A stretch of DNA of 64,000 nucleotides from a virus (Duplodnaviria; Caudoviricetes): IMG/VR virus record IMGVR_UViG_3300035182_002389, positions 64,001 through 128,000 of that record; one strand, given 5' to 3'. Below are positions 33,601 through 58,611 of the stretch, in pieces. Positions within the stretch are counted from its first letter, which is position 1; each line of letters starts with the position of its first letter. The position numbers were made by a program, and so were the translations under genes. The notes below the pieces were generated by a model that searched no databases, was not told where the DNA came from, and saw nothing but the letters and a program-made list of their open reading frames with translations.

Positions 33601-33707
33601 TCGGGGGCTGCGCGCCCCCGAACCCCGCGCCACCTGCGGTGGGGCTCCTGTTGGGGCTCTGCCCCAAACCCCGCTGAGGGGCGCTCACAGCGCGCCCCTC
33701 AGACTCC
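33601..33707 (+). repeat. dispersed repeat family A, copy 1 (four-hairpin element)
   Basis: TCGGGGG-ctgcgcg-CCCCCGA; CCACC-tgc-GGTGG; TTGGGG-ctctg-CCCCAA; CTGAGGGGCGC...GCGCCCCTCAG-ACTCCC. Confidence 0.92.
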
Positions 33708-34718
33708 CTACTGCTGAAGCTCTTGCAGGCGCTGGTCGGCCATCTGCGCCAGCTCGCTGCACCCATTCGCGGCAGCCGCGTCGCGCGTCTGCTGGATGGC
33801 GCCCTGATTCTGAGAGTTCATCACTTGGTCGAGGACGTTGCGGTACGCGTCCGCGACGTAACCGTTCGTGCAGCCGACCTGGCCGAACGGCGTGTTGATG
33901 AGCGAGGCCTGCATGCGCTGCTTCGCGTACGTGGCCAGCTCGCTGCAACCGTTTGCTTGGGCGACGTTGAGCGTGTCCTGGAGCTGCGTCTGGTCGGTTG
34001 CCCGACTGACCTGATCGAGCACGCCGCGATACGCGGACGCCACGAGTCCGGCCGAACAGACGACCGGGCCGAAGGGCGTGTTGAACGCGAGCGACTGAAG
34101 CCGCTGCGTCGCTGCATCCGTGAGCGCGGGGCAGTTGTGCGACTGCGCGATGTCGATGATCTGCTGGAGCGCGTCCGCGTCCTGCGAATCGTGAATCCGG
34201 TCGAGGACGTGATCCTGGTCGTCGTACGTCTCGTTGTTCGAGCAGACGATTCGGCCCATCGGCGTCTCGATGGTGAACGCGAGCATTCGGTTGTCGATGG
34301 CCTGCGTCAGATCATCGCAGCCGAGCGATTGGGAGACGTTGCGCGCGTAGTTGAGGTCTTGCATGTTCGACGACGATCGCGCCCCGTCAAGCACGCTGCG
34401 GTAGGCGTTGAGCACGCTCCCGCTCTCACACGCGACCGGCCCAAAGGGCGTGTCGGTCGTCGCCACCGGCGTGGCCGGCGTCGGTTCGGCCGGCTTGGGC
34501 GTGTTGTGGATGACGTCGGGCTGCACGACGGGCGGGACATACGCGGGCGGCGCGGGCGGCGCAGGGAGGACGGGCGTGCCCGGGAGCTTCTGCGAGGGCA
34601 CGATGGGCGGAGCGGCTGCGGGCGCCGCCGCCTTCGACGATTTCGCGATGAGGACGACCGCTGCGATGGCCGCGATGCCGCCGCCGACGAACAGAATCTT
34701 CTTGGTGTTCGGGTCCAT
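33708..34718 (-). CDS. membrane-anchored protein with four 62-aa Cys-pair repeats
   Basis: ILFVGGGIAAIAAVVLIAK, Pro linker, 4 x TP(F/M)G..C...VLD...C..L. Confidence 0.8.
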   Translation of the reverse strand: MDPNTKKILFVGGGIAAIAAVVLIAKSSKAAAPAAAPPIVPSQKLPGTPVLPAPPAPPAYVPPVVQPDVIHNTPKPAEPTPATPVATTDTPFGPVACESGSVLNAYRSVLDGARSSSNMQDLNYARNVSQSLGCDDLTQAIDNRMLAFTIETPMGRIVCSNNETYDDQDHVLDRIHDSQDADALQQIIDIAQSHNCPALTDAATQRLQSLAFNTPFGPVVCSAGLVASAYRGVLDQVSRATDQTQLQDTLNVAQANGCSELATYAKQRMQASLINTPFGQVGCTNGYVADAYRNVLDQVMNSQNQGAIQQTRDAAAANGCSELAQMADQRLQELQQ

Positions 34719-34766
34719 GTTCTTCCTCACCGCTCTCTGATGTGCGGACAGCTTATCACAAGCCGG

Positions 34767-35390
34767 CTACCGACCAATGGACGCGTCGTAGTCCTTCTCT
34801 TCGCGCATCGGCGGCCTGTAGTGCACGTCGACCTTGATGCCGAACTTCGCGACCAGTGCTTCGACGGCCAACTGGTCGATGGACCGCGTGCGCCGATCGA
34901 TCTTCCCCCTGAGCTGACCGCCTTGCCCGAACCGGCCGAACATGAAATGCGGGTGATGTCTCGGCAGAAAATCCGGCACGATGTAACCGCGACAGAGAGA
35001 GCCGTCCTTCTCCCAGACGTACATGTGAATGTGGTCGGGATGGCTCATCGCCGTCGATGAGGAGTTCTTCGGGTACGGCCCGTGTGCGCGTCCTTGCGGC
35101 GGTCGAGGCGTCAACAAAGGCTTGCCGCCCACCTTCAACGCGCCGGCGCCGACGATGTACTGCCCGTCCTTGCGGCTCTCGACCATCATCTGATCGGTCG
35201 GTTTCGAGGATCGCATCTCCGCCGACGCGTACGGCTCGAACATGTTGATCTCGCCGAGCACCTTCACGCGCTCTTTGCCGCGGTAGGCGATGAAGGGGAA
35301 GCGTGCGCGCACGAGCGCCGCAAGCTCAGCGTCCCGCAGCTCCTTGAACCGAAGCTGCTCGGCCGCCGAGAGGTCGTCCCAATACTTCAT
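34767..35390 (-). CDS. hypothetical protein (H-x-x-H-x-H motif)
   Basis: MSHPDHIHMY; TAATCT 6 nt before the ATG. Confidence 0.6.
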   Translation of the reverse strand: MKYWDDLSAAEQLRFKELRDAELAALVRARFPFIAYRGKERVKVLGEINMFEPYASAEMRSSKPTDQMMVESRKDGQYIVGAGALKVGGKPLLTPRPPQGRAHGPYPKNSSSTAMSHPDHIHMYVWEKDGSLCRGYIVPDFLPRHHPHFMFGRFGQGGQLRGKIDRRTRSIDQLAVEALVAKFGIKVDVHYRPPMREEKDYDASIGR

Positions 35391-35436
35391 GGCGCAAGAT
35401 TACTCACAAAGCCGCGTCGCGTATACGTGCCGGCGG

Positions 35437-35451
35437 GGCTTGTGACAAGCC
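35437..35451. promoter_or_regulatory. dyad motif
   Basis: GGCTTGTGACAAGCC between divergent genes. Confidence 0.75.
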
Positions 35452-35491
35452 AGCCTTGGCATGCGTCAGGGCGCGTGCGAAGCTCTCCGCC

Positions 35492-35854
35492 ATGGCCAAG
35501 ACCTCGCTGCAACCGTGGGAGCGCAAGCTGAGCCCCGAAATCCGATCCCGCATCGAGGCGGGTCGCACCCGCGACCTGAAGGACAGGCTTCGTGCGACGT
35601 CGAACGTCATGGCCTCCACCGCCTACGCGTTCTTGGAGACCGCGAAGGAAGACCGAAAGCTCTTCGAGCTTCTCGCGAACCATTTCCACGGCGACCCCTA
35701 CTACATGAGCAAAGAGCGCGCGTGGCACGCGGCCAGCCACGTGATGCAGGCGCTGCGCGCCGAAGCCAAGAAGCTCATGAAACACGCCACGTACGCCAGC
35801 TCGATGGCGCGAGGGGCCGAGCGCAAGCTCTCGAAGCTCGGCGCGCGCCAGTAG
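35492..35854 (+). CDS. hypothetical basic protein
   Basis: MAKTSLQPWERK...; dyad motif upstream. Confidence 0.6.
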   Translation: MAKTSLQPWERKLSPEIRSRIEAGRTRDLKDRLRATSNVMASTAYAFLETAKEDRKLFELLANHFHGDPYYMSKERAWHAASHVMQALRAEAKKLMKHATYASSMARGAERKLSKLGARQ

Positions 35855-35885
35855 ACGTCGACGATCGCTCCCCCATTTCGCGCCC

Positions 35886-35900
35886 GACTTCCGACAAGCC
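35886..35900. promoter_or_regulatory. dyad motif
   Basis: GACTTCCGACAAGCC, 4 nt before TAGAAT. Confidence 0.75.
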
Positions 35901-35916
35901 GTGATAGAATCAGCGG

Positions 35917-36246
35917 ATGTCGAGCCTGTCGCCGCACACCTTCACCGATTCCGATCACCACGTCCTCGACCGCGCCTCGCGCGAGTGGTGGAAGCTCGGA
36001 TGGGACTGCCTCGATTTCACGCTCTCCCACATGCGATGGGTGCGCGGTCGAGAGGGCATCGAAGTGTGGTCGACCGCGCGCGGCATCGACGTCTTCCACG
36101 TGATCGACGGTTCGCGCACCACACTTCGACCTGGAGGGTTTCGCGCGGGCAAGGCCCACGAGATCCTCAAGGTGCTCGCGCCCGTCCTCCATGCGCCGAC
36201 CTCTTCCATCGCGCCGACTTCTTCGCGCCGCGGCTCGCTGCGCTGA
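35917..36246 (+). CDS. hypothetical protein
   Basis: dyad plus TAGAAT 6 nt before the ATG. Confidence 0.6.
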   Translation: MSSLSPHTFTDSDHHVLDRASREWWKLGWDCLDFTLSHMRWVRGREGIEVWSTARGIDVFHVIDGSRTTLRPGGFRAGKAHEILKVLAPVLHAPTSSIAPTSSRRGSLR

Positions 36247-36256
36247 CGCGGGCCTC

Positions 36257-36976
36257 TCACCCCTCGACGTTGCGGAGCACGGTGTTGACGACTCGCTTGC
36301 GGTCGCGCGGCGACCAGTAGGGCGAGTAGAGACGCCATGTCTCACTCTGCTTCAGCATCACGCTCAAGCCTTCGCTCTTGCCGAACAGCTTCACGAACCG
36401 CTCGTACGCGGGGAGGATGTTCGACAGCTCGTCGAGGATGTTGATCAGGTACGCGGACACCTCTTTGCGCTGCGCGTAGTGCGTGCGCGGATCGTGCTCG
36501 ACTCTCCCTCGGGCCGCAGCGAACGCAGCGTCCGCTCCAGGGCCTGCCGTGTACGTCGGTCGAATCCCAGGGTCCGAGGCGTGACCAAGCTCGTGGATGA
36601 GCGTCTTGTAGAACTGCGAGGCGATGAGATCGCTGCCCGCAGCGGAGCGGTGAAGCTCGCTTGCGGGCACGCTGCCGTTGAACAGCAGCACGACGACGGG
36701 TTTGCCGTCGGGGGCGTGGCCGTAGCCGCCCTCGTGGACGTAGGCGCGCTCGTTCATGCGCCTCGCCAAGAGGACGATGTAGACCGTCTTCGACCATCCT
36801 CGGGCGTCGAGGATCTCGTACGGCTTGCCGGCCAAGAGCGTCTGGTCGCCGAGCGCGCCCGAATGCCCCTTCGTCTTCTCTGCGACGACGTCCTGAAGCT
36901 CTTTCGCGAGCCGCCTCGCCGAAGGCTTGTGGACCGGCAGCGTGCGGGCAAACCGATCGGCGGAAGAGTTCATCAT
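36257..36976 (-). CDS. zincin-like metallopeptidase domain protein
   Basis: KTLIHELGHASD plus downstream HYAQRKEVSAY. Confidence 0.65.
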   Translation of the reverse strand: MMNSSADRFARTLPVHKPSARRLAKELQDVVAEKTKGHSGALGDQTLLAGKPYEILDARGWSKTVYIVLLARRMNERAYVHEGGYGHAPDGKPVVVLLFNGSVPASELHRSAAGSDLIASQFYKTLIHELGHASDPGIRPTYTAGPGADAAFAAARGRVEHDPRTHYAQRKEVSAYLINILDELSNILPAYERFVKLFGKSEGLSVMLKQSETWRLYSPYWSPRDRKRVVNTVLRNVEG

Positions 36977-37023
36977 CTCGGACTCAAGCCTATCAGAGCC
37001 AAATCGAATCGAGAGCGAGACGC

Positions 37024-37132
37024 TCGGGGGCTGCGCGCCCCCGAACCCTGCGCCACCTGCGGTGGGGCTACTGTTGGGGGCTCTGCCCCCAAACCCCCGC
37101 TGAGGGCGCTTTCAGCGCGCCCTCAGACTCCC
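37024..37132 (+). repeat. dispersed repeat family A, copy 2
   Basis: near-identical four-hairpin element; contains the stop codon of 37068..37709. Confidence 0.92.
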
Positions 37133-37709
37133 CGCCGACATACCCCCATTCGAGGATCGAGTCGCCGTTCGTGTAGAGCGTGCGCGCGGGGACGACCTTG
37201 CTCACGATGGCGTAGTGGCCGCGCATCGGGCCTTCGCCGTGTGAGGCGGCATACGCGCGGTCGAGCGCCACCCAATCGCCCGGGTTGATGGTCGCGCGCC
37301 GAACCTTCTCGGGCGGCGGCATGGCGCGCAGTTGCGCGAGCGAGGCCACGATCGAGTCGTAGAGAGCAGATTTGGAGTGCGCGCCGTAGACAGCCCTGCG
37401 CGACGGCGGGAGCTGTCCGCGACGAAGCAGAGACGCGCGGTCGGCCTCCATCTGACGGATCTGCGCATCGCGGTTCGCGGGCAGCTTGATCGTCGCGCGG
37501 TAGATGCGCACCGGGCGGTTCGGATGGCCCCGCATGCGGCGGACAATCCCCCACGTGACGAGGTCCGTGCCGTCGCCGACGCCGTAGTACCGAGGGCCAA
37601 GCGACGAGTAGACGTCCTCAGGGTAGACGCTGCCCGCCGTGAGGTCGTGCAGCGGTGCCGCCTCGCGGCCGGGCGCTCTGTGGTCGATCCGGTAGTCGTC
37701 GTTGCTCAT
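37068..37709 (-). CDS. ART-fold-like protein whose C-terminus runs into repeat A
   Basis: VRIYRAT...INPGDWVAL..YA..HG...EWGY; last 20 aa encoded by the repeat. Confidence 0.55.
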   Translation of the reverse strand: MSNDDYRIDHRAPGREAAPLHDLTAGSVYPEDVYSSLGPRYYGVGDGTDLVTWGIVRRMRGHPNRPVRIYRATIKLPANRDAQIRQMEADRASLLRRGQLPPSRRAVYGAHSKSALYDSIVASLAQLRAMPPPEKVRRATINPGDWVALDRAYAASHGEGPMRGHYAIVSKVVPARTLYTNGDSILEWGYVGGESEGALKAPSAGVWGQSPQQ

Positions 37710-37960
37710 GACGTCTTTCGACGAAGGATCGCGAGAAAGTAGCGCACGACATAGAGCCGCGCGCTCTCGGAGAACGTTGCGACCGAGCGGCCTTGCGGAC
37801 TTTTCGGTCGGAGCATGTCGATCTCGTTCAGGACGACGTCGATGGAGACGAGCTTGTGGCGCGCGATGGTCTCGATCGCCTCCCAGAACTCGGGCTCCAG
37901 CGACACGCTGGTGCGCTTGCCGCGAAGACTCACGTTGCGGACGTTGGCAGAGCGAGGCAT
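37706..37960 (-). CDS. ribbon-helix-helix domain protein (RHH_4-like)
   Basis: RNVSLRGKRTSVSLEPEFWEAIETIA...SESARLYVVRYF. Confidence 0.85.
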   Translation of the reverse strand: MPRSANVRNVSLRGKRTSVSLEPEFWEAIETIARHKLVSIDVVLNEIDMLRPKSPQGRSVATFSESARLYVVRYFLAILRRKTS

Positions 37961-38274
37961 CAGCGACCGATCGATCTGGCCCAGAGGTAGGTGCCCTTGG
38001 AGATGGTGTAGAAGGTGTCCCCCTTCCACGCTCGGTACTCGGACTTTTCGGCCTTCTTCTTGAGGTTGGCCTCGTAGATGCGCTGCTCGTCGCCATCCAT
38101 CCGATTGAACTTCACGCGGTCGAAGAAGTCGCGCCAGTTCGGCTTGACCTCCTCCACACGATCCGCGTACTGGCCGACCCACTCCAGCTCCGTCATCACG
38201 CCTTCGGGGAAGCGAAGCAGGCGCGCCGACGTGCCGATCGAAGAGAGTGAGGAGGAGGTCTTTCTCGAAGCCAT
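37960..38274 (-). CDS. hypothetical protein
   Basis: MASRKTSS...; coupled to the RHH start. Confidence 0.55.
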   Translation of the reverse strand: MASRKTSSSLSSIGTSARLLRFPEGVMTELEWVGQYADRVEEVKPNWRDFFDRVKFNRMDGDEQRIYEANLKKKAEKSEYRAWKGDTFYTISKGTYLWARSIGR

Positions 38275-38287
38275 GGAAACCTCTTGC

Positions 38288-38447
38288 GAGCGAAACGAGA
38301 GCGAGACGAGACGAGAGCGAGACGAGAGCGAGACGAGAGTGGGGGCTGCGCACCCCCACACCCCGCGCCACCTGCGGTGGGGCTACTGTTGGGGGCTCTG
38401 CCCCCAAACCCCCGCTGAGGGCGCTTTCAGCGCGCCCTCAGACTCCC
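38288..38447 (+). repeat. dispersed repeat family A, copy 3, with extended (GAGAC/GAGC) leader
   Basis: GAGAGCGAGACGAGACGAGAGCGAGACGAGAGCGAGACGAGA then the four-hairpin element 38339..38447. Confidence 0.92.
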
Positions 38448-38975
38448 GCCGTTGCGGGCCTTGAGCGTCGCGATCTTCGACACGAGCGTGTCGTAGCCGC
38501 GCGGCGTCGGGACGGCCTTCGGAGCGGTCGCCATCATCGGACCCGGCACGCTGCTGGAGGGCGCGGCGACGGGCGCGGGGGCCTGCATGAGCACCTTGAA
38601 CTCGTCGACGACGGCCTGGAGGTTCTGCACGGCCGTCATCAGGTCGGCGATGACCTTCGAGAAGTCGGGGTTGCTCTGCTTCAGGTCGGCGGCGGCCTGC
38701 ACGGAGGCCTGCAAGGCGTCGACGGCGCTGTTGACCGCGAGAACGCTCTCGTCGAACTTCGCCTGCGCGACGGCCTGCTTGTCGGCCGGGATGGCGGGCT
38801 TGATGCTGCCGAACACGACCTCGGCGATCGAGAGGATGGTGCTGATCGACTGGATCAGGCTCTCGGTCTGCGCGACCGGGTCCTTCTGGAAGTTCGACCA
38901 CCACGTCGAGCAACTGGTGAGCGAGAGCACGGGGACGATGAGCGCGATGGCGGTGAACTTGTAGAGCTTTCGCAT
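38427..38975 (-). CDS. putative lipoprotein, coiled-coil
   Basis: MRKLYKFTAIALIVPVLSLTSC lipobox-like; stop lies inside repeat A. Confidence 0.7.
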   Translation of the reverse strand: MRKLYKFTAIALIVPVLSLTSCSTWWSNFQKDPVAQTESLIQSISTILSIAEVVFGSIKPAIPADKQAVAQAKFDESVLAVNSAVDALQASVQAAADLKQSNPDFSKVIADLMTAVQNLQAVVDEFKVLMQAPAPVAAPSSSVPGPMMATAPKAVPTPRGYDTLVSKIATLKARNGGSLRAR

Positions 38976-39029
38976 GGTAGGGCAAGCCTATCCGCAAAGG
39001 CGGTGCGCATCTACGATCGCGCCGAAAAT

Positions 39030-39665
39030 CTACCTCGGCACGATCCAGAGCACGTCCGTGTACTTGACTCCGAGATCGGAGAGGACCGCAAGCCGGTGGA
39101 ACCCATCGAGGATAGCGCCCTGAACGTCCACCAGAACGGGCCAAGGCTTGCCGCCGCGCTTCAACTTGTCGGCGATGGCGTCGTATCGTTCGAGGTGGCT
39201 CATCTCGTCGGAGTCGCCGGAGTCATCAGCGCCTTCGCCGAACGCGTAGACGTTTCGAGAAGCTGGCGCAAAGAGCGCGATGGGCACGCCGCGCACGAGG
39301 TACACGCGACGCTTTGCGATCTCCTGGACGGCGCGCCATTGCACTGAACGTGCAAGTATCGCAGCGACCGATCTTGTCGCAGATGAGACCTCTCGCTTGG
39401 GCGAGTTTTGGATCCAACACAAACGAGGCCACTCCGAAGAAGCGGCGTACGCGGTCGCGCATTTGTTCGCGAGAGCGTGCGTTTTGCCCTCCCCCCGCAT
39501 GAAGGCGTACACGCCCGCATAGGCTCTCGACGGGCTCTGTGACATGCCTTCCACGCGCAGCCGACGGTACTCGGCCGAGAAATGTTCCAGCGTCACGTTC
39601 GACGCCCGGAAGAGCCCCGTCGACTTGACGAAGGCTCGGTACTCTTTGCGGATCTCGCTGAGCAT
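39030..39665 (-). CDS. protein with C-terminal ParB-like domain
   Basis: PVLVDVQGAILDGFHRLAVL; TAATCT 6 nt before the ATG. Confidence 0.6.
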   Translation of the reverse strand: MLSEIRKEYRAFVKSTGLFRASNVTLEHFSAEYRRLRVEGMSQSPSRAYAGVYAFMRGEGKTHALANKCATAYAASSEWPRLCWIQNSPKREVSSATRSVAAILARSVQWRAVQEIAKRRVYLVRGVPIALFAPASRNVYAFGEGADDSGDSDEMSHLERYDAIADKLKRGGKPWPVLVDVQGAILDGFHRLAVLSDLGVKYTDVLWIVPR

Positions 39666-39733
39666 GAGGTCAGATTATCCGCGAAGGCGGCGCACATCCA
39701 TGGCGCGACGAGCTTGTGGTAAGTTCGAGCCCC

Positions 39734-40222
39734 ATGAACTCTGTGGTCCTCAGTTCAGGCAACAGCTTCATCGTTCACGGGCGCGGGGCGTTCCGTGAAA
39801 GGCGCTTCCACTCGGGGAGCGAAGCGGCCCTCTACGCGGCCAAGAAATCCATGGCGGGCCATGGCCTCGTCCTGATCGACGTTGTCGAGGCGCCGCGCGG
39901 CGCCGTTCAAGGATCGCTCTGGAAGACCTTCGGGCGAGGCGCGCATCGCGCCTTGCAGACCCTCAAAATCTTCGTCGAGCACCGCCCGAACGAACACCTG
40001 TCGAGCTTCCAAGGCTCCGTCGATCCTGCGGTCACGGGCTATCGCATCTCCTCGCGCAAGCTCGGATCGGGCCACCGGACCATGGTCAAGGACCTCGGCC
40101 GGGCGTTCAAGGAGGCCATCTGGGGCAGCTTGCGGACCGGCGAGGCCGCCGTCATCTGGGAGGTCAGTCGCGACGGCAACAACCGCTCCCCGTACACCGT
40201 CTCGGCCGAGCAGGTCCAATAG
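39734..40222 (+). CDS. hypothetical protein
   Basis: 162-aa coding-like ORF downstream of a dyad-like site. Confidence 0.55.
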   Translation: MNSVVLSSGNSFIVHGRGAFRERRFHSGSEAALYAAKKSMAGHGLVLIDVVEAPRGAVQGSLWKTFGRGAHRALQTLKIFVEHRPNEHLSSFQGSVDPAVTGYRISSRKLGSGHRTMVKDLGRAFKEAIWGSLRTGEAAVIWEVSRDGNNRSPYTVSAEQVQ

Positions 40223-40231
40223 AGCTTCGCC

Positions 40232-47335: not shown

Positions 47336-47459
47336 CGAGACGAGCGAGAGAGCGGGGGCTGCGCACCCCCACACCCCGCGCCACCTGCGGTGGGGCCACT
47401 GTTGGGGGCTCTGCCCCCAAACCCCCGCTGAGGGCGCTCTCGGCGCGCCCTCAGACTCC
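47336..47459 (+). repeat. dispersed repeat family A, copy 4
   Basis: GA-rich leader plus the four-hairpin element. Confidence 0.9.
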
Positions 47460-47481
47460 TGCCGTGATACCCTACCCTTCA

Positions 47482-48060
47482 ATGGCCAAGCGGGCGATCC
47501 TCCCCTACGTGCTCGGCGGAGCGGCGCTCCTCGGCGTCATCGTTCTTGCACGCCGAAGCAGCGCCCAGGCGCTCGCCCCAAGTCCGAGCGTGCGCACGTG
47601 GCCCGTGGTCCCCAACCGGGGCACCATCAGCGGGTTTGGGGCTCCGCGCCCTGCGGGAAAGTACCCCGCGCGCTACCACGCCGCCGTGGACGTCGGCGCG
47701 CAGGACGGGGACAAGGTCGTCGCGATCGACGACGGCGAAGTGCTCAAGCTCGTCACGGGCTACCAGATTGGCGCAGGCCTTCAAGCGGTCGCCATCCGTC
47801 ACCCCGACGCCGACTACATCTACGCCGAGATCCAGGTGACGGCGGTGCCCGGCCAGCGTGTCAAGGCGGGCGACGTCATCGGCGTCGTGCGCCAGAACGA
47901 CTCTGGTCCGGGGCACCAGATGCTTCACCTCGAAGCGTGGCAGACCGGGATGGTGCCGGACGCTTTCAAACCGTGGTACGTGGGCCAGGCCGCGCCGCCG
48001 GGCCTGCTCGACGTAGGCAAGATTCTCGCGCCCCTCGCGAACACGGGAGTGAAGCCGTGA
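47482..48060 (+). CDS. M23 family metallopeptidase with N-terminal TM
   Basis: YHAAVD (HxxxD), GQRVKAGDVIG, MLHLE. Confidence 0.88.
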   Translation: MAKRAILPYVLGGAALLGVIVLARRSSAQALAPSPSVRTWPVVPNRGTISGFGAPRPAGKYPARYHAAVDVGAQDGDKVVAIDDGEVLKLVTGYQIGAGLQAVAIRHPDADYIYAEIQVTAVPGQRVKAGDVIGVVRQNDSGPGHQMLHLEAWQTGMVPDAFKPWYVGQAAPPGLLDVGKILAPLANTGVKP

Positions 48061-48088: not shown

Positions 48089-48199
48089 TCGGGGGGTTGC
48101 GCACCCCCCGAACCCCCGCGCCACCTGCGGTGGGACTTTTGTTGGGGCTCTGCCCCAAACCCTGCTGAGGGGCGCTTCCAGCGCGCCCCTCAGACTCCC
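48089..48199 (+). repeat. dispersed repeat family A, copy 5
   Basis: four-hairpin element with compensatory variation. Confidence 0.9.
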
Positions 48200-48217
48200 T
48201 GCCGCGGGAGTGAAGCC

Positions 48218-48997
48218 GTGAGCCGCTCTCTTTCCGTCAAGGCCTCGCGCTGGTCAACCACGGAGATCGCCATGGCGGTCGGCGGAGGACTCCTTGCTGT
48301 CGCGGCTTTTGCGATCGCGAAGAAGACCTTCGAGCAACGCCCCCTCGCGGTCGGCAACTACTTCTTCCCGTTCCACGACGCCGAATACCTCAGCCCCGGG
48401 CAGAGTCTGGGTGGACAGGCCTTCGTCCCTCCCGGCGCGCGAGACAACGCCCGCCTCCTCGTCTACCTGCACGGCAACAACGACGGCGGCATGATGCACG
48501 GCGGGATGGGCGCGACCGACACGGCCTACGACCTTCGCAAGATCGTGCCTTCGGACACCATCGTCGCGGCGCCCAGCCAGACGCGAAACGCCTCGGGCGC
48601 GGGGCTCTGGGCGGGCTTCAACCTCGACGAGTTCGTTGCCGCGGTCGAGCGCGCGACAGGGGCCACGATCGACAAATCGCGCGTGATTCTCATGGGCCAC
48701 AGCGGCGCCGGATGCAGCTCGGTCGGCGGCCTCTTCGGCAAGCTCGGGGTCATCAAACCGCAGCTCGTCGCCGTCGTCGACGTCTGCGCGGGGCCCATGT
48801 ACGGAGAGGCATACGGCAGGCTCGCCGAACAAGTTCCCGTGCGCGTGTTCTACCAAACGCGCACGTGGTCGCGAGACTTCGCGGGCTTCCAAGCGGGCTT
48901 GAGGGGCCGCGCGACCTTCGAGGAGGTTCAGACCCCAGCCGGGCAGAGTCCCCACAGCGCCATCGTCCCCATCGTCGCGAAGATGGTGCTCACGTGA
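48218..48997 (+). CDS. membrane-anchored alpha/beta-hydrolase
   Basis: TM; LLVYLHGNN; nucleophile elbow GHSGAG; C-terminal His (PHSAI). Confidence 0.75.
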   Translation: MSRSLSVKASRWSTTEIAMAVGGGLLAVAAFAIAKKTFEQRPLAVGNYFFPFHDAEYLSPGQSLGGQAFVPPGARDNARLLVYLHGNNDGGMMHGGMGATDTAYDLRKIVPSDTIVAAPSQTRNASGAGLWAGFNLDEFVAAVERATGATIDKSRVILMGHSGAGCSSVGGLFGKLGVIKPQLVAVVDVCAGPMYGEAYGRLAEQVPVRVFYQTRTWSRDFAGFQAGLRGRATFEEVQTPAGQSPHSAIVPIVAKMVLT

Positions 48998-49005
48998 GTC
49001 TCCCC

Positions 49006-49158
49006 CTTCCCGTTCCCGTTCCCGTTCCCAGCGTGCCGAAGGCGCGCGTTCCCCCTTCCCGAATCCCGCGCCGAAGGCGCGTCTCGGTCCTGCGAGCCCC
49101 CACAAGACGAGATCGGGAACGCTCGCTGCGCGAGCTGGCAACGGGAACGGGGACGGAA
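49006..49158. repeat. dispersed repeat family B, copy 3
   Basis: (GTTCCC)n arm with GCC-GAA-GGC hairpins, then AGACGAGATCGGGAACGCTCGCtgcGCGAGC..GGGAACGGGGAC. Confidence 0.88.
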
Positions 49159-49511: not shown

Positions 49512-49567
49512 GACGAGATCGGGAACAGGAACGCGCCTTCGGCGCTGGGAACGGGAACGGGAACGGG
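49511..49567 (+). repeat. dispersed repeat family B, copy 4
   Basis: GAGACGAGATCGGGAAC..GCGCCttcGGCGC-TGGGAACGGGAACGGGAACGGG. Confidence 0.88.
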
Positions 49568-49656
49568 CGAGACAAGACGAAAAGGACGGCCTGCGGCCGA
49601 GCACGGGCTTCGCCCGAGGACGCGCCTTCAGCGCGAGGACGGGCTTCGCCCGAGGG
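49568..49656 (+). repeat. dispersed repeat family C, copy 2 (fused to B copy 4)
   Basis: GACGAAAAGGAC-GGCCtgcGGCC-GAGCAC-GGGCttcGCCC-GAGGAC-GCGCCttcAGCGC-GAGGAC-GGGCttcGCCC. Confidence 0.88.
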
Positions 49657-51574: not shown

Positions 51575-51600
51575 GATAAGGCTCGTGATACGATCCCGGG

Positions 51601-52125
51601 ATGGCGAACACCGGGCTCATCGTCGGCGGCGTCGGCATCGCAGCGCTCGCTGCCTACGCGGCATTCGGCAAAGAGAAGCCGCGATTTGCCGACGAGCCGA
51701 TGCCGCGGCCGGGACCGCGATCTACGGGGCCGACCTCCATGCGCTTGGGCCCGTCCTCGATGCGCTCCAGCGTCGTCCAAGGCGCGCCGCGGCCTCAGCC
51801 GGCCCCCTCCGTCGAGACGCGCGAGCCGGCGTCGGGGAGGCCTACGACCCACAAGCGAGCGTTCCAGATCGGACCCTATCAGGTGTCGATTCAGGACGGC
51901 CCCTACCACTACGCTTCTCCGGGCGAAACCGTCGAGATCGGCATCTTCCTGCGAGGGTCGCTCATCAACCCGAAGCGCATCGGCCTGCACAAGTACGCGA
52001 AGTTCTGGGAGAAGGGCAACAACCCCGTGGGCGTCCACGTGCCCATCGCCGCCGCCAACCAGCTCCTTCGCGACATCGAGCGGCATGCCGGTTACAAGGC
52101 TCAGCCCCTGAAGAGGAAATCGTGA
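51601..52125 (+). CDS. N-terminally membrane-anchored protein
   Basis: LIVGGVGIAALAAYAAFGKEK; dyad plus TACGAT 6 nt before the ATG. Confidence 0.7.
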   Translation: MANTGLIVGGVGIAALAAYAAFGKEKPRFADEPMPRPGPRSTGPTSMRLGPSSMRSSVVQGAPRPQPAPSVETREPASGRPTTHKRAFQIGPYQVSIQDGPYHYASPGETVEIGIFLRGSLINPKRIGLHKYAKFWEKGNNPVGVHVPIAAANQLLRDIERHAGYKAQPLKRKS

Positions 52126-52754
52126 CGCCTTCCGCGCTCTCGCTGTGGCCGTGGAAGGGGCAAGAGCGATACTGGCCCTCCGTCGCGGGGTTTCATCTCG
52201 AAGCGCGCGGGTACGGCAAGTACGGCGACGCGAGCGCCGTCGAGTACCGCTACGAGGGGCGCGGCAAGCAGTTCGCGAACCTCGTCGTCACGTTCAGCGC
52301 GCACCGCCACGAAGCGACGGACGGCAAGGCGCCGATCGCGTGGAAGGCAGAATCCTACGGGCCGAAGATCGACGGCACCGTCGCGACGCTCGAAGAGATC
52401 CCGAGGAAGCTCGCCGCGCTCGCGCGATGGGCGCTTCAACGCAAGCACGCCGCGAACGCGTACTTCGCCAAAGCTCTGCCGAGCAGCACGCACTGGAACG
52501 TGAACCACGACGTCGAGTTCTTCGGCGCGACGTACAAGAACCCGCACAGCGACGCGTACATGTCCGTCACCTTCGACGATCCCGCGAGCTTGCTCCTCGG
52601 GCAAAGGGACACGGCCCACATCCGATTCGCGCGCGGCAGCGACTATCAGGGGGCGTACGGGACGAGCCAACACATCGTCACCTACGGCACCCTCGACGAG
52701 ATGCGTGGCGTGCTGAAGATCGCCGAGACGCACTGGAAGGCGTGGAACCGATGA
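52122..52754 (+). CDS. hypothetical protein
   Basis: GTGA coupling; aromatic-rich beta protein. Confidence 0.6.
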   Translation: MTPSALSLWPWKGQERYWPSVAGFHLEARGYGKYGDASAVEYRYEGRGKQFANLVVTFSAHRHEATDGKAPIAWKAESYGPKIDGTVATLEEIPRKLAALARWALQRKHAANAYFAKALPSSTHWNVNHDVEFFGATYKNPHSDAYMSVTFDDPASLLLGQRDTAHIRFARGSDYQGAYGTSQHIVTYGTLDEMRGVLKIAETHWKAWNR

Positions 52755-53377
52755 CCAACCACAAAGAAGCGCTCGCCAACCTCGAATCTCGCGAGGCGAA
52801 GGTCGCGTACGCGATCAAACACAAGCTGCGCGTGTCGGTCCGTCCCACCCGAGATCGGCACAGGTTCGTCTTTCGCATCGTCACGCCCGATCGCCAGGTG
52901 CTCGACACGTTCGACTGCTCTCGGGCGAACTACGCGCGCATCTCCCGAGCCGGCGCGGACATGGACAAAATCAGCAACGAGCCCGTTCGTCGGTGGCGGC
53001 TCTACGAGACCGCCTCGGGCAACTCTCCCGTGCGCGACTACCTCCTCACGCTCACCGAAGACGAGCAGAGCCGCGTCCGCGCGAAGATGCACATCATCAA
53101 GACCCAGGGCCTCTCGAAAGCCATTCGCATGGCCGCAGAAAAGAGCGACCTCTACGAGATCCATGCCGACGCGAGCAATCGAGCCCTGCGGCTCATCTTC
53201 GCTCCCGAAGGCAAGCGGGGCCACGTTCTGCTCGGCCTCAACGCTTTTGAGAAGCGGTCGCAGAAGACGCCGCGCAGTGCCATCGACACCGCTCTCGCCC
53301 GCCTCGCCGACTGGCGCGAACGACACGAGAAGAGGCGCAGGACAAGCTCGCTCGGGCGCGTCTCTGCCCGGCGGTAG
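52751..53377 (+). CDS. RelE/HigB (phage Gp49/DUF891-like) toxin domain with N-terminal extension
   Basis: WRLYETASGNSPVRDYL...LYEI...RLIF...LNAFEKRSQKTPRSAIDTALAR. Confidence 0.85.
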   Translation: MTNHKEALANLESREAKVAYAIKHKLRVSVRPTRDRHRFVFRIVTPDRQVLDTFDCSRANYARISRAGADMDKISNEPVRRWRLYETASGNSPVRDYLLTLTEDEQSRVRAKMHIIKTQGLSKAIRMAAEKSDLYEIHADASNRALRLIFAPEGKRGHVLLGLNAFEKRSQKTPRSAIDTALARLADWRERHEKRRRTSSLGRVSARR

Positions 53378-53381
53378 GTCC

Positions 53382-53906
53382 ATGACCATTCGCTTCACCG
53401 TCGACAAGAAGAGGAAGATCGTCCGCGCTGTCTTCGCCAAAGAGAGCGAGCCGCCGACGTATGCACTCGCCTTCTTCTACAAGATCCGCCGCGCCGATCC
53501 CTACCTCGGCATGGGCGTGCGACTGCTCGTGAAGGGAGAGAGGGGTCGCATGGGGGCTATGATCCTTTCTCTCACCACGCCTGCGCCCGGGGAAATGTCC
53601 ACCGCGTGTGAGAAGGACTACCGCGCGCTGAGGCCCGCGCTCTTTCAGGCGCGCACTCCCCTCTACCGCGTTCGGTCCTCGGACGTGCGCTCGCCCTACC
53701 AAGGCTCCGGTTTTGGCGTCCTCATGTACGCCGCGGCCATCGTTCTCGCCGACCTCCAGGGCACCGGCATCGCCGCCGACGAATGCTACATGGAAAAGGG
53801 CTACGAGGGCATCACGAGCGAAGCCGCACGCCGCGTCTGGGACTCGCGACGGCTCGCGAAGATCGCCAACGTGCGCGGCAGCGTCGCGTTCCTTCGACGC
53901 TCCTAG
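53382..53906 (+). CDS. GNAT-like protein (paralog family)
   Basis: SDVRSPYQGSGFGVLMYAAA...ADEC...TSEAARRVWDSRRL. Confidence 0.65.
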   Translation: MTIRFTVDKKRKIVRAVFAKESEPPTYALAFFYKIRRADPYLGMGVRLLVKGERGRMGAMILSLTTPAPGEMSTACEKDYRALRPALFQARTPLYRVRSSDVRSPYQGSGFGVLMYAAAIVLADLQGTGIAADECYMEKGYEGITSEAARRVWDSRRLAKIANVRGSVAFLRRS

Positions 53907-54268
53907 CGCCTCGGCCGCTTGAGATCGACGATTTCGAGCACCTTGATGCGATTCGGATCGAACATGATCCAGTTGTCGTCGAGGTGCACGCTGTCGTAGC
54001 CGAGCTGCGTGAGCTGATCGAGCAGGTATCGATCGTACTCTTTCCAGCCCGCGGTCTTCTGCGCCCGGAGCACGACCTTCATCAGATAGTTGAGACTGCC
54101 TGCGCCGCTCTCGCCGCGCAGGATCACGTCCTTGTCCTCGCTGAACCAGAAGATCCCGCCCATCGCGGAGAAGCTCCGCTGAAAGCGTCGAATGGGGTGC
54201 GAGCCGCCATGATAGGCGATAACCGTTCGCTCGGGCGCGAGGCTCGTTCCGAGGGAGGCCTTGCTCAT
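53903..54268 (-). CDS. ART-fold-like small protein
   Basis: VIAYHGG...GGIFWFSED...GYDSV. Confidence 0.55.
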   Translation of the reverse strand: MSKASLGTSLAPERTVIAYHGGSHPIRRFQRSFSAMGGIFWFSEDKDVILRGESGAGSLNYLMKVVLRAQKTAGWKEYDRYLLDQLTQLGYDSVHLDDNWIMFDPNRIKVLEIVDLKRPRR

Positions 54269-55350
54269 CGACCGGACCCCGGCAGAGGACGGCGCTTCCA
54301 ACCCTTCACGCGGGCGGCGTCTTCGGCGATCTCCTTCTGGATCGTCTCGATGCTGCGGTCGATCTTGCGCATCCGAGAGCCCCACTCGCCGTCGTAGCGC
54401 CGGTCCGAAGGTGTGATGACCTCCTTCTGGCCGCGGTAGTTCTCGATGGTCAGAGAGGGCTTCAGGCGCAGCTCGGCGCGGTTCTCTTGCATCCGCGCCT
54501 CGGTCGGCCGAAGGACCTTCGCGATGTACTCGATCGTGCCTTGCGGGCTCAGCTCAAAAGGCGGGCAGTGAAAACCGAAGCAGGGGCCCGTGTGCCACGA
54601 CATTCCCTGCGCGCCCTTGTAGCGCGTGCCGCTCACGCTCCACCCGTGGCGCATCATCATGCGCTCGTGGAGCTTCACGTTGCTGAAGCACGCGGGGCAA
54701 GTGCCGGTGTCTTCGAGCGAGCGCGCGCTCACGGGACGAAGGGCCGCAGCGACCGACTCTGCCCCAAGCTTCGTGATGGCTTCCGCAGCCTTTGCCTTCA
54801 ACCCGCTCTTGTACGCGAAGGTCCAGAACCTATCGGAGCCCGTTTCGGTGAGCGGCTCGACGCGGCCCGTGTAACTCAGCTTCGGCGTGAAGACGACGTC
54901 TCCCGATTCGGTGCGCACTCGATACCCGGGCATCCCGCGCCACACCTCGCGCAGCTCGACGCCGTGCCTGCCGCCCACGTACGGCCCGATACCTCGCGTC
55001 GCCATCTGCCCCGCGCCGAGCGCGATGGGAGGGCCCTTGCTGCTCCACGAGAGGAGGGTCTGCCGAAGGATCGTGACGAGGGTCGCGGCCTGCTCGCGCG
55101 TGCCGACCAGCGCGATGATCGGGTCCTTGCCGCCGAGGCCGACGAAATCCGCGGCAATGCCCGCGTGCGCGGCGACGGGTTTGAGGAACGCGCCCGCCTT
55201 CTCCCCGTCGAGCGACGCGGGCACGACCTCTTGCCCGATCGCCCAGCCGAGCAAGGGAAGCGCCTCGGCCAAGGCGGCGGGATCGAACCCGCCCTTGATC
55301 CCTTTGGCCGCTTTCGTGAGAAAAGCGAGCGCGTTCTTCGAGAGCGTCAT
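54265..55350 (-). CDS. hypothetical protein with Zn-binding module
   Basis: GTCPAC...RHGW...HTGPCFG. Confidence 0.65.
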   Translation of the reverse strand: MTLSKNALAFLTKAAKGIKGGFDPAALAEALPLLGWAIGQEVVPASLDGEKAGAFLKPVAAHAGIAADFVGLGGKDPIIALVGTREQAATLVTILRQTLLSWSSKGPPIALGAGQMATRGIGPYVGGRHGVELREVWRGMPGYRVRTESGDVVFTPKLSYTGRVEPLTETGSDRFWTFAYKSGLKAKAAEAITKLGAESVAAALRPVSARSLEDTGTCPACFSNVKLHERMMMRHGWSVSGTRYKGAQGMSWHTGPCFGFHCPPFELSPQGTIEYIAKVLRPTEARMQENRAELRLKPSLTIENYRGQKEVITPSDRRYDGEWGSRMRKIDRSIETIQKEIAEDAARVKGWKRRPLPGSGR

Positions 55351-55360
55351 GGCGGGTCTT

Positions 55361-56008
55361 TCAGAGGAAGGCGGCGACGGGGTAGCTGCCGAGATAGTCG
55401 CTCTGCACGGCGTCGTAGTCGATGTTGATCCCCGCCGCGATCGTTCGGTTGCCGGGGTAGAGCTGGAGCATCTGGTAGCCGCGCACGTCGACGTCGGGCG
55501 CGCGGCCGGCCGTCTTCCAGTAGCGCGAGACCGAGAGCGAGTGGTAGAGCTGGCTGCTCGTCAGCGGCACGCCGGGCTCGCAGTAGATGCCGAGGGCCGC
55601 GCCGAACATCCCGCCCGCGACTGCCCCCTTGTACCAGGCGTTCGCGTAGGCGATGCACGCCTCCGCCGTCCCTGCATTGGCCAAATCCAACCAGAGACAA
55701 CCTCCCGCGGGATAGCCCATCGAGATGGCGTACGAAGCTGCGGCTTGGCCGTCCGCGAACCCGATCGACTCGCTCCAGCCGCTCGTGCGCCCGAACTGCA
55801 CGAGCATCACGCCGAGCCCCGCTTGGGTGAGCGCGGCCAGCTCCGTTTTTCCGATCGCGAACGGCGACGACTGCCCCGCGAGCGGGACGTACCGCACGCC
55901 GAACTTCATGCCGGCCTTCACGAGCGTTGCGGCCTGGGCCGCGCTGAGCGCCTCGATCGTGTCGAACCCGAGCATGCCCACGGAGAGAGGCTTCAGGGAA
56001 AGGGTCAT
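55361..56008 (-). CDS. DUF1906/Rv2525c-like glycoside hydrolase (putative peptidoglycan hydrolase)
   Basis: GFDT...A..LVKAGMKFGVRYV...K.EL..L...GLGVMLV...DG..AA..A...GYP...LWLD. Confidence 0.8.
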   Translation of the reverse strand: MTLSLKPLSVGMLGFDTIEALSAAQAATLVKAGMKFGVRYVPLAGQSSPFAIGKTELAALTQAGLGVMLVQFGRTSGWSESIGFADGQAAASYAISMGYPAGGCLWLDLANAGTAEACIAYANAWYKGAVAGGMFGAALGIYCEPGVPLTSSQLYHSLSVSRYWKTAGRAPDVDVRGYQMLQLYPGNRTIAAGINIDYDAVQSDYLGSYPVAAFL

Positions 56009-56048
56009 CGTCGTTCCTCCTTCAATCCACCGCGGCCGATCGTACCAC

Positions 56049-56063
56049 GGCTTATCGCAAGCC
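56049..56063. promoter_or_regulatory. dyad motif
   Basis: GGCTTATCGCAAGCC between divergent genes. Confidence 0.75.
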
Positions 56064-56091
56064 GAGGCGATTCGTGCGACCATTGCGATCG

Positions 56092-56598
56092 ATGAACGCG
56101 TTTCGCTACACCCTCGACAAGACGAGGCGCATCGCGCGCGTACAGCTCTCGGGCGACGACCAGGCCGTCGCCCTCGCGTCGTTCGAGAAGTCGGAGGAGT
56201 TCCCGTTCGGCAAGATGTGCGTTCGGCTTCTTCGGCGCGGCAGCGCGATGTACGTCGGCGAGATGCAGCTCAACCCTCGTAGGCCTCACGTCCGCGACAT
56301 GGACCCTACCTGTCTCAACCACTACGAGCGGCTCCGGCCGGCCCTCTACCGCGCCAACGTCGCCCTCTACCGCGTGAGGTCTTCGGACATCTACCTCACC
56401 CATCTCTGGCGCCACGGCTACGGCGTGCTCATGTACGCGGCGGCGCTTCTGCTCGCCGACATGCAAGGGACCGGCATCGGATCGGATGAGTGCTTCTACG
56501 GCTCGACGAGTCGGCGCGCCGGGCGCGTCTGGGAATCGCGGCGCCTCGCTTCGATCGCCGACGTGATGGGCGACATCGCGTTTCTCAAGCGGCGCTGA
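56092..56598 (+). CDS. GNAT-like protein (close paralog of 53382..53906)
   Basis: RPALY...LYRVRSSD...GYGVLMYAAA..LADMQGTGI..DEC. Confidence 0.65.
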   Translation: MNAFRYTLDKTRRIARVQLSGDDQAVALASFEKSEEFPFGKMCVRLLRRGSAMYVGEMQLNPRRPHVRDMDPTCLNHYERLRPALYRANVALYRVRSSDIYLTHLWRHGYGVLMYAAALLLADMQGTGIGSDECFYGSTSRRAGRVWESRRLASIADVMGDIAFLKRR

Positions 56599-56616
56599 GG
56601 TGATACGGTGACCGCC

Positions 56617-56952
56617 ATGGGCAAGAGCCTCCAGAAGTACGCGTCGAGCTTGCGGCGCCCGCGGTTCGTGCACGACTGCAACCGCTGCATCTTCCTCGGA
56701 GGCTCCACGATCGAGGGCGGTCGGCCGGCCGACTTCTACTGGTGCCCCGATCGGCGCAACGAGACCATGAGCAGCATGATCGCGCGCTACGGCGACGACG
56801 GGCCCGAGTATCTCTCGTCCTCGCCGCCCGAGGCCTTCGCCGACCCGCTGTACCTGCTCCAGAAGCGGAAATGGTACAGGACTCTTCTGCGTCGCGCGCA
56901 TCGCGCGGGGCTCTACGCGAACAAGCACAACTACAACCTCTCGGAGCCTTGA
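56617..56952 (+). CDS. hypothetical phage protein
   Basis: PRFVHDCNRCIFLG...DFYWC...ARYGDDGPEYLS; TACGGT 7 nt before the ATG. Confidence 0.65.
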   Translation: MGKSLQKYASSLRRPRFVHDCNRCIFLGGSTIEGGRPADFYWCPDRRNETMSSMIARYGDDGPEYLSSSPPEAFADPLYLLQKRKWYRTLLRRAHRAGLYANKHNYNLSEP

Positions 56953-57494
56953 TGAGCGACCTCAAGCAAATCCAAGAGGCCATCTGGGGGGATCGCGAGA
57001 CCCTCTCACACCTCGAAGGCGCCTACCGAAACTTCTTTCAGACGCGCGACGTCGGCGTCTTGCGACCGTCCAAGACCCTCGTGTACGCGCTCGCGAAGAA
57101 GTACGGCGCCAGCTTCGACGTCGTCCAGGCCGCCATCGGCAAGCTCGTCGCCAACGTCCAGTACGAGATGATGGTCGACTACGTCGCGCGTCTGCCCCAC
57201 ATCCGAGGCCATCTTCGCGAACTCGCCCTTCTCACCTACTCGCCCGATGGCGCGCTCGGGTCGATGAAGAAGCTCACGCCCGAGGTCGAAGAGAGCCTCC
57301 GCTCTTTCTACGCGCCCCTTCGCTGGAAGAGCCCCATGGGCTTGGAGCTGCTCAGCGGCGCGGTCTCGAAGGAGAAGCGCAAGCTCCAAGGCCTTTCGAG
57401 CATGGGCCGAACCGCTCCTTCACCGTTCTCGGAGCCCGCGTCTCTCGGTCCCGTCACCTACCCCGCGCGCCGCAAACCTTCCAGCTCAAACTGA
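56952..57494 (+). CDS. hypothetical protein
   Basis: TGATG coupling; 180 aa. Confidence 0.6.
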   Translation: MSDLKQIQEAIWGDRETLSHLEGAYRNFFQTRDVGVLRPSKTLVYALAKKYGASFDVVQAAIGKLVANVQYEMMVDYVARLPHIRGHLRELALLTYSPDGALGSMKKLTPEVEESLRSFYAPLRWKSPMGLELLSGAVSKEKRKLQGLSSMGRTAPSPFSEPASLGPVTYPARRKPSSSN

Positions 57495-57505
57495 ATCGGA
57501 GTCAC

Positions 57506-57727
57506 ATGGACAAGCTCACTCTTCTCGGTCTTGGCCTCATGGGCGCAGGCGTCGCGACCAAGCTCATCGAGCCGCCCAAGATGGGACAGTCCGCAGAAGT
57601 CATGCGCGGATACGGCGCGCTCGAAATCGTTCTCATCGGCGGCGGCGCGTCGCTCGCCTTCTACGGCGCGTTCGTGAAGGGCAAGACGCCCATGCTCACG
57701 AGCGGACCGCCGTCGTCCTACCGCTGA
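57506..57727 (+). CDS. small two-TM membrane protein
   Basis: LTLLGLGLMGAGVA and IVLIGGGASLAFY. Confidence 0.65.
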   Translation: MDKLTLLGLGLMGAGVATKLIEPPKMGQSAEVMRGYGALEIVLIGGGASLAFYGAFVKGKTPMLTSGPPSSYR

Positions 57728-57731
57728 ACCG

Positions 57732-58076
57732 TCAGTAGTTGTCGATGTAGCGCTTCGCTTCGCGCAACGTCGCCAGGTACTTGCCGCCGCCCGAGTCGGG
57801 GTAGTGAACGCACCAGCCGTGCTTGTCGTGCTCGATCTCCCACCCCTTGTAGATGGTGATCTTCCCACGCTCAGGCACAAACGTGTAGCTCGGGAGCCGT
57901 GCTGTGAGAGACGCCTTTCGGGCGGCCTCCTCACGCTCCGCGGCTTCGCGCGCAGGGCGCTCTGCCTCCCAGCGGAGGTCGGCGAGTCGATCGGCCTCAT
58001 CGGCCGCGGCCAGCTCCGCGGGCGTGTAGCGTGCCGAAGAGACGGAGCGGCTCACAGGACGCTTTCGGATCGTCAT
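57732..58076 (-). CDS. hypothetical protein
   Basis: C-term IYKGWEI...W.V...YLATLREAKRYID. Confidence 0.6.
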   Translation of the reverse strand: MTIRKRPVSRSVSSARYTPAELAAADEADRLADLRWEAERPAREAAEREEAARKASLTARLPSYTFVPERGKITIYKGWEIEHDKHGWCVHYPDSGGGKYLATLREAKRYIDNY

Positions 58077-58080
58077 CGAG

Positions 58081-58440
58081 TCATCTCCCCGAGGAGTGAA
58101 CATTGAGCGTCACCATCACGACCTTCTCGCCGCCGTAGTCGTACGTGTCGACGCTCGGCGCATACTTCGCGACGGCCCCTCGCGCGTCCGTGTGGACCTT
58201 GCGCACGCCGGCGGCCCTCAGCGTTTTTGCGATCCAGTTGGCCGCGCGCAGCTCCAACTTCGCGTCGCCCGAGTCGACGCGGATGCCGCCCGCGTCGTAC
58301 CCTTCGACGTGCAGGGTCTCGGCCGAGAGTGCGACGAGGCGCACGCGGCTGCGAGGCTTCATGTAGCCGGCCTTCACCATCGCAGCGTCGAGCCTGCGTT
58401 GAAGTTCCATGCGGGCGAGGATGGTTTCGGCGCGACTCAT
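58081..58440 (-). CDS. hypothetical protein
   Basis: dyad-like site plus TACGCT 6 nt before the ATG. Confidence 0.6.
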   Translation of the reverse strand: MSRAETILARMELQRRLDAAMVKAGYMKPRSRVRLVALSAETLHVEGYDAGGIRVDSGDAKLELRAANWIAKTLRAAGVRKVHTDARGAVAKYAPSVDTYDYGGEKVVMVTLNVHSSGR

Positions 58441-58489
58441 CCTCGAAGCGTAGACGATCCCGATCCGCTTGTCGCAAGCCGCACAGCAC

Positions 58490-58611
58490 GGAGAACGAGA
58501 ATCGCTCGGGGGCTACGCGCCCCCGAACCCCGCGCCACCTGCGGCGGGGCTATTGTCGGGGCTCTGTCCCGAACCCCGCTGAGGACGCTCACGGCGCGCC
58601 CTCAGACTCCC
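58490..58611 (+). repeat. dispersed repeat family A, copy 6 (most diverged)
   Basis: TCGGGGG-ctacgcg-CCCCCGA...TCGGGG-ctctg-TCCCGA...CTGAGG...CCTCAG-ACTCCC. Confidence 0.88.

Follow-up and report, generated by a model that had tools for sequence, protein, structure and literature searches.

What is the hairpin-rich element that recurs along a 64,000-nucleotide stretch of the genome of an uncultured bacterial virus (Caudoviricetes; IMG/VR record IMGVR_UViG_3300035182_002389)? This stretch, hereafter the window, covers bases 64,001–128,000 of the 202,518-bp record, which has a GC content of 66% and is estimated to be 94% complete. The element is about 110 bases long, holds no gene and consists of four GC-rich hairpins (H1–H4). 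An earlier note, made from the letters alone, had listed six copies, starting at 33601, 37024, 38339, 47354, 48089 and 58506, each with a GA-rich leader and four hairpins; we recovered all six, all on the + strand and all built as described. We consider it probable that the element is a small gene-less family of DNA insertions, of the kind of the repetitive extragenic palindromes (REP), BoxC and the miniature inverted-repeat transposable elements (MITEs), constructed as a modular hairpin array with a putative triplex fold. Among the three options that the note had offered, a non-autonomous mobile element fits best, and a structured RNA is unlikely.

A profile search built from the window copies found 12 copies in the whole record, i.e., seven of type A, four of variant B and one truncated. 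The full type-A copies (n = 7; E values of 1e-31 to 1e-34) lie between 59 and 123 kb, six of them in the window and one upstream at genome 58,888–58,998. Five divergent or partial copies lie outside the window, all within the first 12 kb of the genome: three full B copies on the − strand, one B copy truncated by the contig end and one + strand copy without hairpin 4. Orientation is uniform by type (A, 7/7 on the + strand; B, 4/4 on the − strand), and this one-strand placement could result from local amplification or replication-strand bias. The repeat is not an assembly artefact, a possibility the note had raised, because an identical 4.6-kb contig with two copies occurs in a different Joint Genome Institute (JGI) sample record and the window stretch is also found in several sequencing runs, some of which are possibly the source sample. 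No RNA dataset is listed among these runs. Contigs from four sequencing runs are short unitigs only, breaking at or near the repeats, and empty sites are not readable from them. A blastn search of GenBank phages with the element and with 8 kb around it gave no match. At its left end (genome 1–95), the virus contig breaks off within a copy of type B and passes into a poly-G tract, which is probably a sequencing or assembly artefact.

Hairpins with mirror-image tails

Folded as single-stranded DNA (ssDNA) with ViennaRNA, which models Watson–Crick and wobble pairs only, one copy forms exactly four hairpins at −39.2 kcal/mol (z = −5.47; 0/200 shuffles as good). RNAalifold returned the same four hairpins from 10 copies, with five pairs kept through two-sided changes, and the stems preserve pairing through whole-stem swaps between copies. 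Type A carries GGGGG/CCCCC in H1 and CCACC/GGTGG in H2. In type B, H1 is GGGAGGGG/CCCCTCCC and H2 is GCAACG/CGTTGC or GCAGCG/CGCTGC, while H3 and H4 are retained. One copy combines a B-type H1 with an A-type H2, indicating that the hairpin modules recombine as a mosaic; the earlier comparison with REP and bacterial interspersed mosaic elements (BIMEs) in style was thus fair.

The earlier description of the hairpins was right as far as it went, and overlooked the mirror-image tails that make them potential intrastrand triplex motifs. H1, H3 and H4 each have a purine-rich 5' arm and a pyrimidine 3' arm; a 3-nt turn (GAA, ACA, AAA or AGA) then leads into a pyrimidine tail, the mirror image of the 3' arm, as in CCCCAA-A-CCCC, CCCTCAG-A-CTCCC and CCCCTCCC-aga-CCCTCCC. 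Arms and tails were parsed by script, because MAFFT misaligned the G-run indels relative to the stems. Among the copies, which are related by descent, the arm/arm/tail sets of H1 are G4/C4/C3, G5/C5/C4 (five times), G6/C6/C5 (twice) and GGGAGGGG/CCCCTCCC/CCCTCCC (four times); most H3 sets are G4/C4/C4 or G5/C5/C5, and a few deviate by one base. The claim that stem lengths co-vary was therefore correct and understated, as the tail after the hairpin co-varies too. Three strands (arm, arm and tail) are under constraint.

The layout of class III/I potential intrastrand triplex motifs, a purine block, its reverse complement and a parallel mirror block, is present in H1, H3 and H4 of all full copies. 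Perfect purine–loop–pyrimidine–turn–mirror-pyrimidine (R-loop-Y-turn-Y') motifs of at least 5 nt occur 12 times on the + strand and 8 times on the − strand, nearly all of them in this repeat family, compared with about one per strand (maximum 3) in Markov-shuffled genomes. A single strand of the element may thus be able to fold into an intrastrand triple helix, in which the C-rich strand would adopt the pyrimidine motif and the G-rich strand the purine motif. The H4 tail CTCCC runs parallel to GAGGG, and no Watson–Crick pairing is possible between them; such geometry is that of a pyrimidine-motif triplex or, on the complementary strand, a purine-motif one. The triplex finder ITxF accepts triplet stems of 6–15 nt and loops of 1–6 nt (PMC4666352). 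Type-B H1, with 7–8 nt and a second loop of 3 nt, lies within these thresholds; type-A H1 and H3 (4–6 nt) and H4 (5–6 nt; its first loop is long and contains an inner stem) lie at or below them.

Insertions at packed gene junctions and within genes

The copies are recent DNA-level insertions at packed gene junctions, at the 3' ends of genes and in frame within genes, and they persist where reading frames survive. The two genes that flank copy 5 (Table 1) overlap by 4 nt in all relatives found (62–69% amino acid identity). A perfect 17-nt duplication surrounds this copy and spans the stop/start overlap; chance matches in 300 control pairs reached at most 12 nt. The earlier impression of no obvious target-site duplication was therefore wrong for this copy. 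At copy 4, only 45 nt separate the M23 peptidase gene from its divergent neighbour in one relative (69% amino acid identity). The related contigs at 62–69% identity carry zero copies of the repeat family anywhere on them.

Closer relatives are informative at copies 1 and 2. The minus-strand gene at 37068–38096 runs about 22 codons into copy 2 (...EWGY, then VGGESEG...) and stops at an internal TAG. The protein of a 91%-identical relative (P0183) ends two residues past EWGY, and its next gene overlaps by 19 nt, which leaves no space for an insert. In place of copy 1, a contig of different sample origin (L153; flanks at 93–96% DNA identity) has an 87-aa gene. The same contig lacks about 990 bp present at window 32030–33020, next to copy 1, and this neighbourhood is thus an indel hot spot. 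In the comparison with relatives that the note had proposed, close relatives thus lack copies 1 and 2, and more distant ones have tight junctions at copies 4 and 5. A search for related loci in viral contigs found none, and one in metagenomes found only relatives at 32–42% identity, without elements.

Several copies also supply the ends of genes. The stop codon of the minus-strand gene at 33708–34730 overlaps the final tail base of copy 1, and the minus-strand gene at 38427–38975 terminates at a TGA within the hairpin 4 loop of copy 3. In all, four copies, three of them in the window plus the genome copy at 11257–11371, contain or directly adjoin the stop of the upstream gene. Outside the window, the genome copy at 9311–9402 is an in-frame insert in an 800-aa protein whose GC content at third codon positions (GC3) is 0.89 and 0.94 on the two sides, and aligned homologues lack about 30 residues at exactly this place. 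A further copy lies in frame within the small open reading frame (ORF) 3855–4319, and the genome copy at 3694–3816 follows a diverged 54-nt duplicate of the first 18 codons of this ORF. Absence at orthologous sites, one target duplication and two copies in frame within genes favour the earlier suggestion of a non-autonomous mobile element.

Occurrence in bacterial genomes

The earlier note overlooked a core shared across phyla. We compared an exact 25-base pattern, which covers the H3 tail and H4, with one genome from each of 185,579 species; about 0.02 matches are expected by chance according to our own estimate. The pattern occurred on eight contigs, which belong to five genomes: two cyanobacteria, two Firmicutes metagenome-assembled genomes (MAGs) and one Omnitrophota MAG. 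The H3–H4 core is near-identical over 55–60 nt across the virus, cyanobacteria, Firmicutes and Omnitrophota, with TTGGGG.., the linker AAACCCC(C)GCTGAGGG and CCCTCAGACTCC as the conserved letters common to virus and bacteria. The inner stem of H4 is fully swapped between taxa, yet still paired. REP-like repeats do not normally extend beyond one genus; the near-identical core across phyla is therefore unusual and points to horizontal spread and a conserved recognition step.

All five genomes examined from the Allocoleopsis order carry the core, with 4–37 copies each. In genomes of this order, the letters of the 3' arm and tail agree (T/T in 16 copies, C/C in about 119), and only three copies are mixed. 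Read on the G-rich strand, the T-to-C switch turns A·A-T into G·G-T with a wobble pair, i.e., the C/C form keeps a G-T wobble in the stem and a leader that still mirrors the purine arm. The C/C form fits a purine-motif triplex, and common ancestry of the copies is another possible explanation. Within one genome (L012:544-600; L008, Elainellaceae; G010; G011), the H4 loop can read GGTTGC or its reverse complement GCAACC, a flip/flop that hairpin inversion or template switching would give. The Omnitrophota MAG contig (L010, 6938 bp) encodes a DnaG-type primase fusion, a tyrosine integrase and a helix-turn-helix (HTH) repressor and carries one H3–H4 module; its ends share an identical 141 bp, which indicates a circular 6.8-kb element.

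Scans of IMG/VR yielded only a chance match (L080) for the composite H3–H4 core and two chance hairpins for a 20-nt H2 pattern. The H3 unit alone was rejected as a family marker: its matches on more than 104 viral contigs are not built on here, because about 40 are expected at random (own estimate) and most are ordinary tailed-phage fragments. Pairs of modules 3.4–3.8 kb apart in three cyanobacteria have only the modules in common, which removes a composite transposon from consideration, and all of the approximately 52 Allocoleopsis copies are closed hairpins, leaving no H4-loop cargo.

Competing explanations and known repeat systems

How would such an insertion family be copied? Copying might be linked to replication or repair, or be done in trans by a host enzyme, with the folded single strand as the substrate; we put this forward with low confidence and favour it because the virus has no enzyme of its own and the duplications are few and unequal. 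The hairpin/triplex fold would be what selection keeps, and any effect on transcripts would be a by-product. Several observations weigh against this reading of the element. Flanking duplications occur at only 2 of 11–12 copies and are unequal in length (17 and 54 nt), and hence no defined transposition chemistry can be read from them. The relative at copy 1 has a different gene and no empty site, so either state could be ancestral. Genes for a Y1/HUH transposase, TnpB or a reverse transcriptase were not found in the 94%-complete virus (PF01797, no match at E ≤ 1; PF07282, no match). For the fold, the tails of the pure G/C runs (type-A H1 and H3) are equally possible alternative Watson–Crick partners, and only H4 favours the parallel strand; the triplet runs of H3 and H4 are short (4–6), under the 6-nt minimum that the published triplex finder sets; and the co-variation counts are inflated by the common descent of the copies. 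Additionally, triplexes of TM_ECO, a motif in Escherichia coli with a comparable block structure, were not detected in vivo in the study behind that finder (PMC4666352). A stronger version, which reads the arm/arm/tail co-variation, the cyanobacterial T-to-C switch included, as a sign that the triplex forms in vivo on ssDNA, is selected and serves as the working core of a cross-phylum mobile module carried by large viruses, is in our judgement unlikely; if true, it would be the first natural case of a selected triplex DNA function in a mobile element.

The hairpin array could instead act as a cis-acting RNA element, i.e., a terminator, a 3'-end stabiliser or an intergenic processing site. In its favour, compensatory changes preserve the pairing of the hairpins, many copies directly follow stop codons, and in one cyanobacterium (G003) about 13 of the 17 scorable copies have the same orientation just downstream of a same-strand ORF. 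In the virus, however, seven or eight copies lie antisense to transcription and only about three sense, with a further one placed between divergent genes. This mixed orientation, together with the copies in frame within coding genes, argues against an RNA gene or a designed regulator, and the element is absent at orthologous junctions of relatives whose genes overlap. The hairpins are not followed by a U-tract, and terminator-like sites show no enrichment (14 versus 10.5 ± 3.2); a scan for intrinsic terminators (GC hairpin plus U-tract) flagged only H2 of copy 5 among the copies. Rfam gave no match at gathering score in the window (noise only, at E up to 10 on one copy) and only noise at E up to 1 on the bacterial loci, with no IS605-orfB or HEARO match. 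The E. coli potential intrastrand triplex (PIT) elements likewise showed no promoter or terminator activity (PMC4666352). We therefore regard an RNA function, and with it the structured RNA of the earlier note, as quite improbable.

A second alternative is that these are hairpins of the REP/PATE type, moved as ssDNA by a host-supplied HUH tyrosine transposase, either TnpA of IS200/IS605 or a REP-associated tyrosine transposase (RAYT), which the earlier note had offered as a lead. The hairpins are GC-rich and intergenic, and the placement of all A copies on one strand and all B copies on the other recalls the strand bias of ssDNA transposition. The mobilising enzyme would have to act in trans, because the virus has neither a Y1_Tnp nor a TnpB gene. 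The alignment shows no conserved GTAG-like tetranucleotide next to the hairpins, and the exact-pattern scan found no Myxococcota genome with the element. The 17-nt target duplication at copy 5 is a further objection, as IS200/IS605 chemistry is not known to produce one. This lead is accordingly very doubtful. Finally, a DNA signal of the virus's own, a pause, priming or recombination site on strands displaced during replication or packaging, would match the uniform orientation by genome region (the G-rich strand would be the one displaced by forks entering from each end) and the block that triplex motifs impose on polymerases in vitro (PMC4666352), but is highly improbable, since relatives at 62–69% amino acid identity have no copies and those at 91–97% lack individual ones, so that the copies are dispensable, while copy 9311 departs from the orientation rule and the within-gene placement looks accidental. 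GC skew shows no replication origin that would explain the orientation.

Returning to an insertion family, its nearest counterparts are the BoxC/PIT/TM_ECO motifs of E. coli and other bacteria (Hoyne and Maher 2000, cited in Holder et al. 2015, PMC4666352). These are intergenic, multi-copy, without strand bias and without promoter or terminator activity; they mark unstable intergenic loci that vary between strains, and they form triplexes in vitro as single strands (PMC4666352). Our element resembles them as a short, GC-rich, multi-copy repeat with purine, pyrimidine and mirror blocks, a 3-nt second loop and no associated gene, lying in either orientation to genes at strain-variable loci and abundant in some cyanobacteria. 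Unlike TM_ECO, it has the domain order R-Y-Y' (class III; class I on the complement) rather than Y-R-R' (class II/IV), and it joins three triplex-type units and a plain hairpin in one 110-nt composite with shorter triplet runs (4–8). The TM_ECO/BoxC pattern CCCTCNCCC-N3-6-GGGNGAGGG-N3-GGGNGAGGG has 0 matches on both strands of the 202-kb genome. Moreover, TM_ECO was reported to be always intergenic and absent from phages, plasmids and transposons (PMC4666352), whereas this family resides in a virus and inside genes and has a core common to several phyla.

Other repeat systems share single traits with the element. Like REP/BIME and the RAYT-associated REPIN, it forms dispersed extragenic palindromes and hairpin-module mosaics that are gained or lost between close relatives; unlike them, it has mirror tails, in-frame copies and one target duplication, and neither a GTAG-type flank nor a RAYT gene. 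The Rickettsia palindromic elements of Ogata et al. (2000) are reportedly palindromic selfish DNA of 100–150 bp, found in frame in genes as well as between them, and are said to be AT-rich, limited to one genus and not of the triplex type. The element likewise survives as palindromic selfish DNA in frame within genes and between genes, and the sequences are unrelated. Like MITEs such as the Correia elements, it is small, non-autonomous and located at gene ends, where it can supply stops or starts; unlike them, it has no terminal inverted repeats, no target duplication of fixed length and no related autonomous insertion sequence. Its two ends differ in the alignment (a GA-rich leader versus ACTCCC(Y)GCCG), and it is thus outside the classical definition of a MITE. 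The repeat is a real, undescribed insertion family, a variant of the REP/BoxC/PIT kind distinguished by triplex-type co-variation, residence in a virus and within genes, and a cross-phylum core.

Decades after their recognition in bacteria, intrastrand triplex motifs (BoxC/PIT) still lack an assigned function and any evidence for an in vivo role of the triplex. The four-hairpin family adds comparative evidence for a constraint on the third strand, with stem, stem and tail changing together in several separate changes, and its triplex-type motifs behave as insertion elements, with target duplications, in-frame copies and residence in a virus. In genomes that carry them, such elements create false gene extensions and break assemblies.

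Table 1. Coordinates of the repeat copies, the duplication at copy 5 and other repeats (window positions unless marked as genome)
Feature	Position	Strand	Remarks
Copy 1, type A	33601..33708	+	GA-rich leader just upstream, ~33583-33600
Copy 2, type A	37024..37133	+	
Copy 3, type A	38339..38448	+	(GAGACG/GAGAGC)n leader at ~38291-38338
Copy 4, type A	47354..47460	+	between divergent genes
Left copy of 17-nt target duplication, CGGGAGTGAAGCCGTGA	48044..48060	+	gives the M23 gene its stop codon
Copy 5, type A	48089..48199	+	between M23 peptidase gene 47482-48060 and gene 48218-48997
Right copy of 17-nt duplication, CGGGAGTGAAGCCGTGA	48205..48221	+	gives the next gene its GGGAG ribosome-binding site and GTG start
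Copy 6, type A, most diverged	58506..58611	+	between two minus-strand genes
Divergent or partial copies	genome 20-78, 3694-3816, 3987-4107, 9311-9402, 11257-11371		profile search
(GGGAAC)n / (CCCGTT)n family	17157-17296, 48997-49060, 60522-60584, 62546-62619		
TTCG/TGCG-loop hairpin arrays	13976-14064, 49567-49655, 61665-61753		

Two other repeat families are present in the window. One has a short GC hairpin set among (GGGAAC)n / (CCCGTT)n hexamer arrays, in both orientations. The other comprises arrays of 4–5-bp GC hairpins with TTCG/TGCG loops and GA-rich spacers (GAGCAC, GAGGAC, GAGAAC), which resemble the GA-rich leader of the four-hairpin element. In relatives, the M23 peptidase gene has a GH25 muramidase gene close by, a pairing that suggests a lysis module, and related viruses (66% amino acid identity in the M23 peptidase) have PF05635 '23S rRNA intervening-sequence protein' genes near their lysis genes. 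Two + strand genes, at window 1555–2167 and 63188–63725, contain long AAG/GCC codon repeats and encode Lys/Ala-rich proteins of histone-H1-like low complexity.

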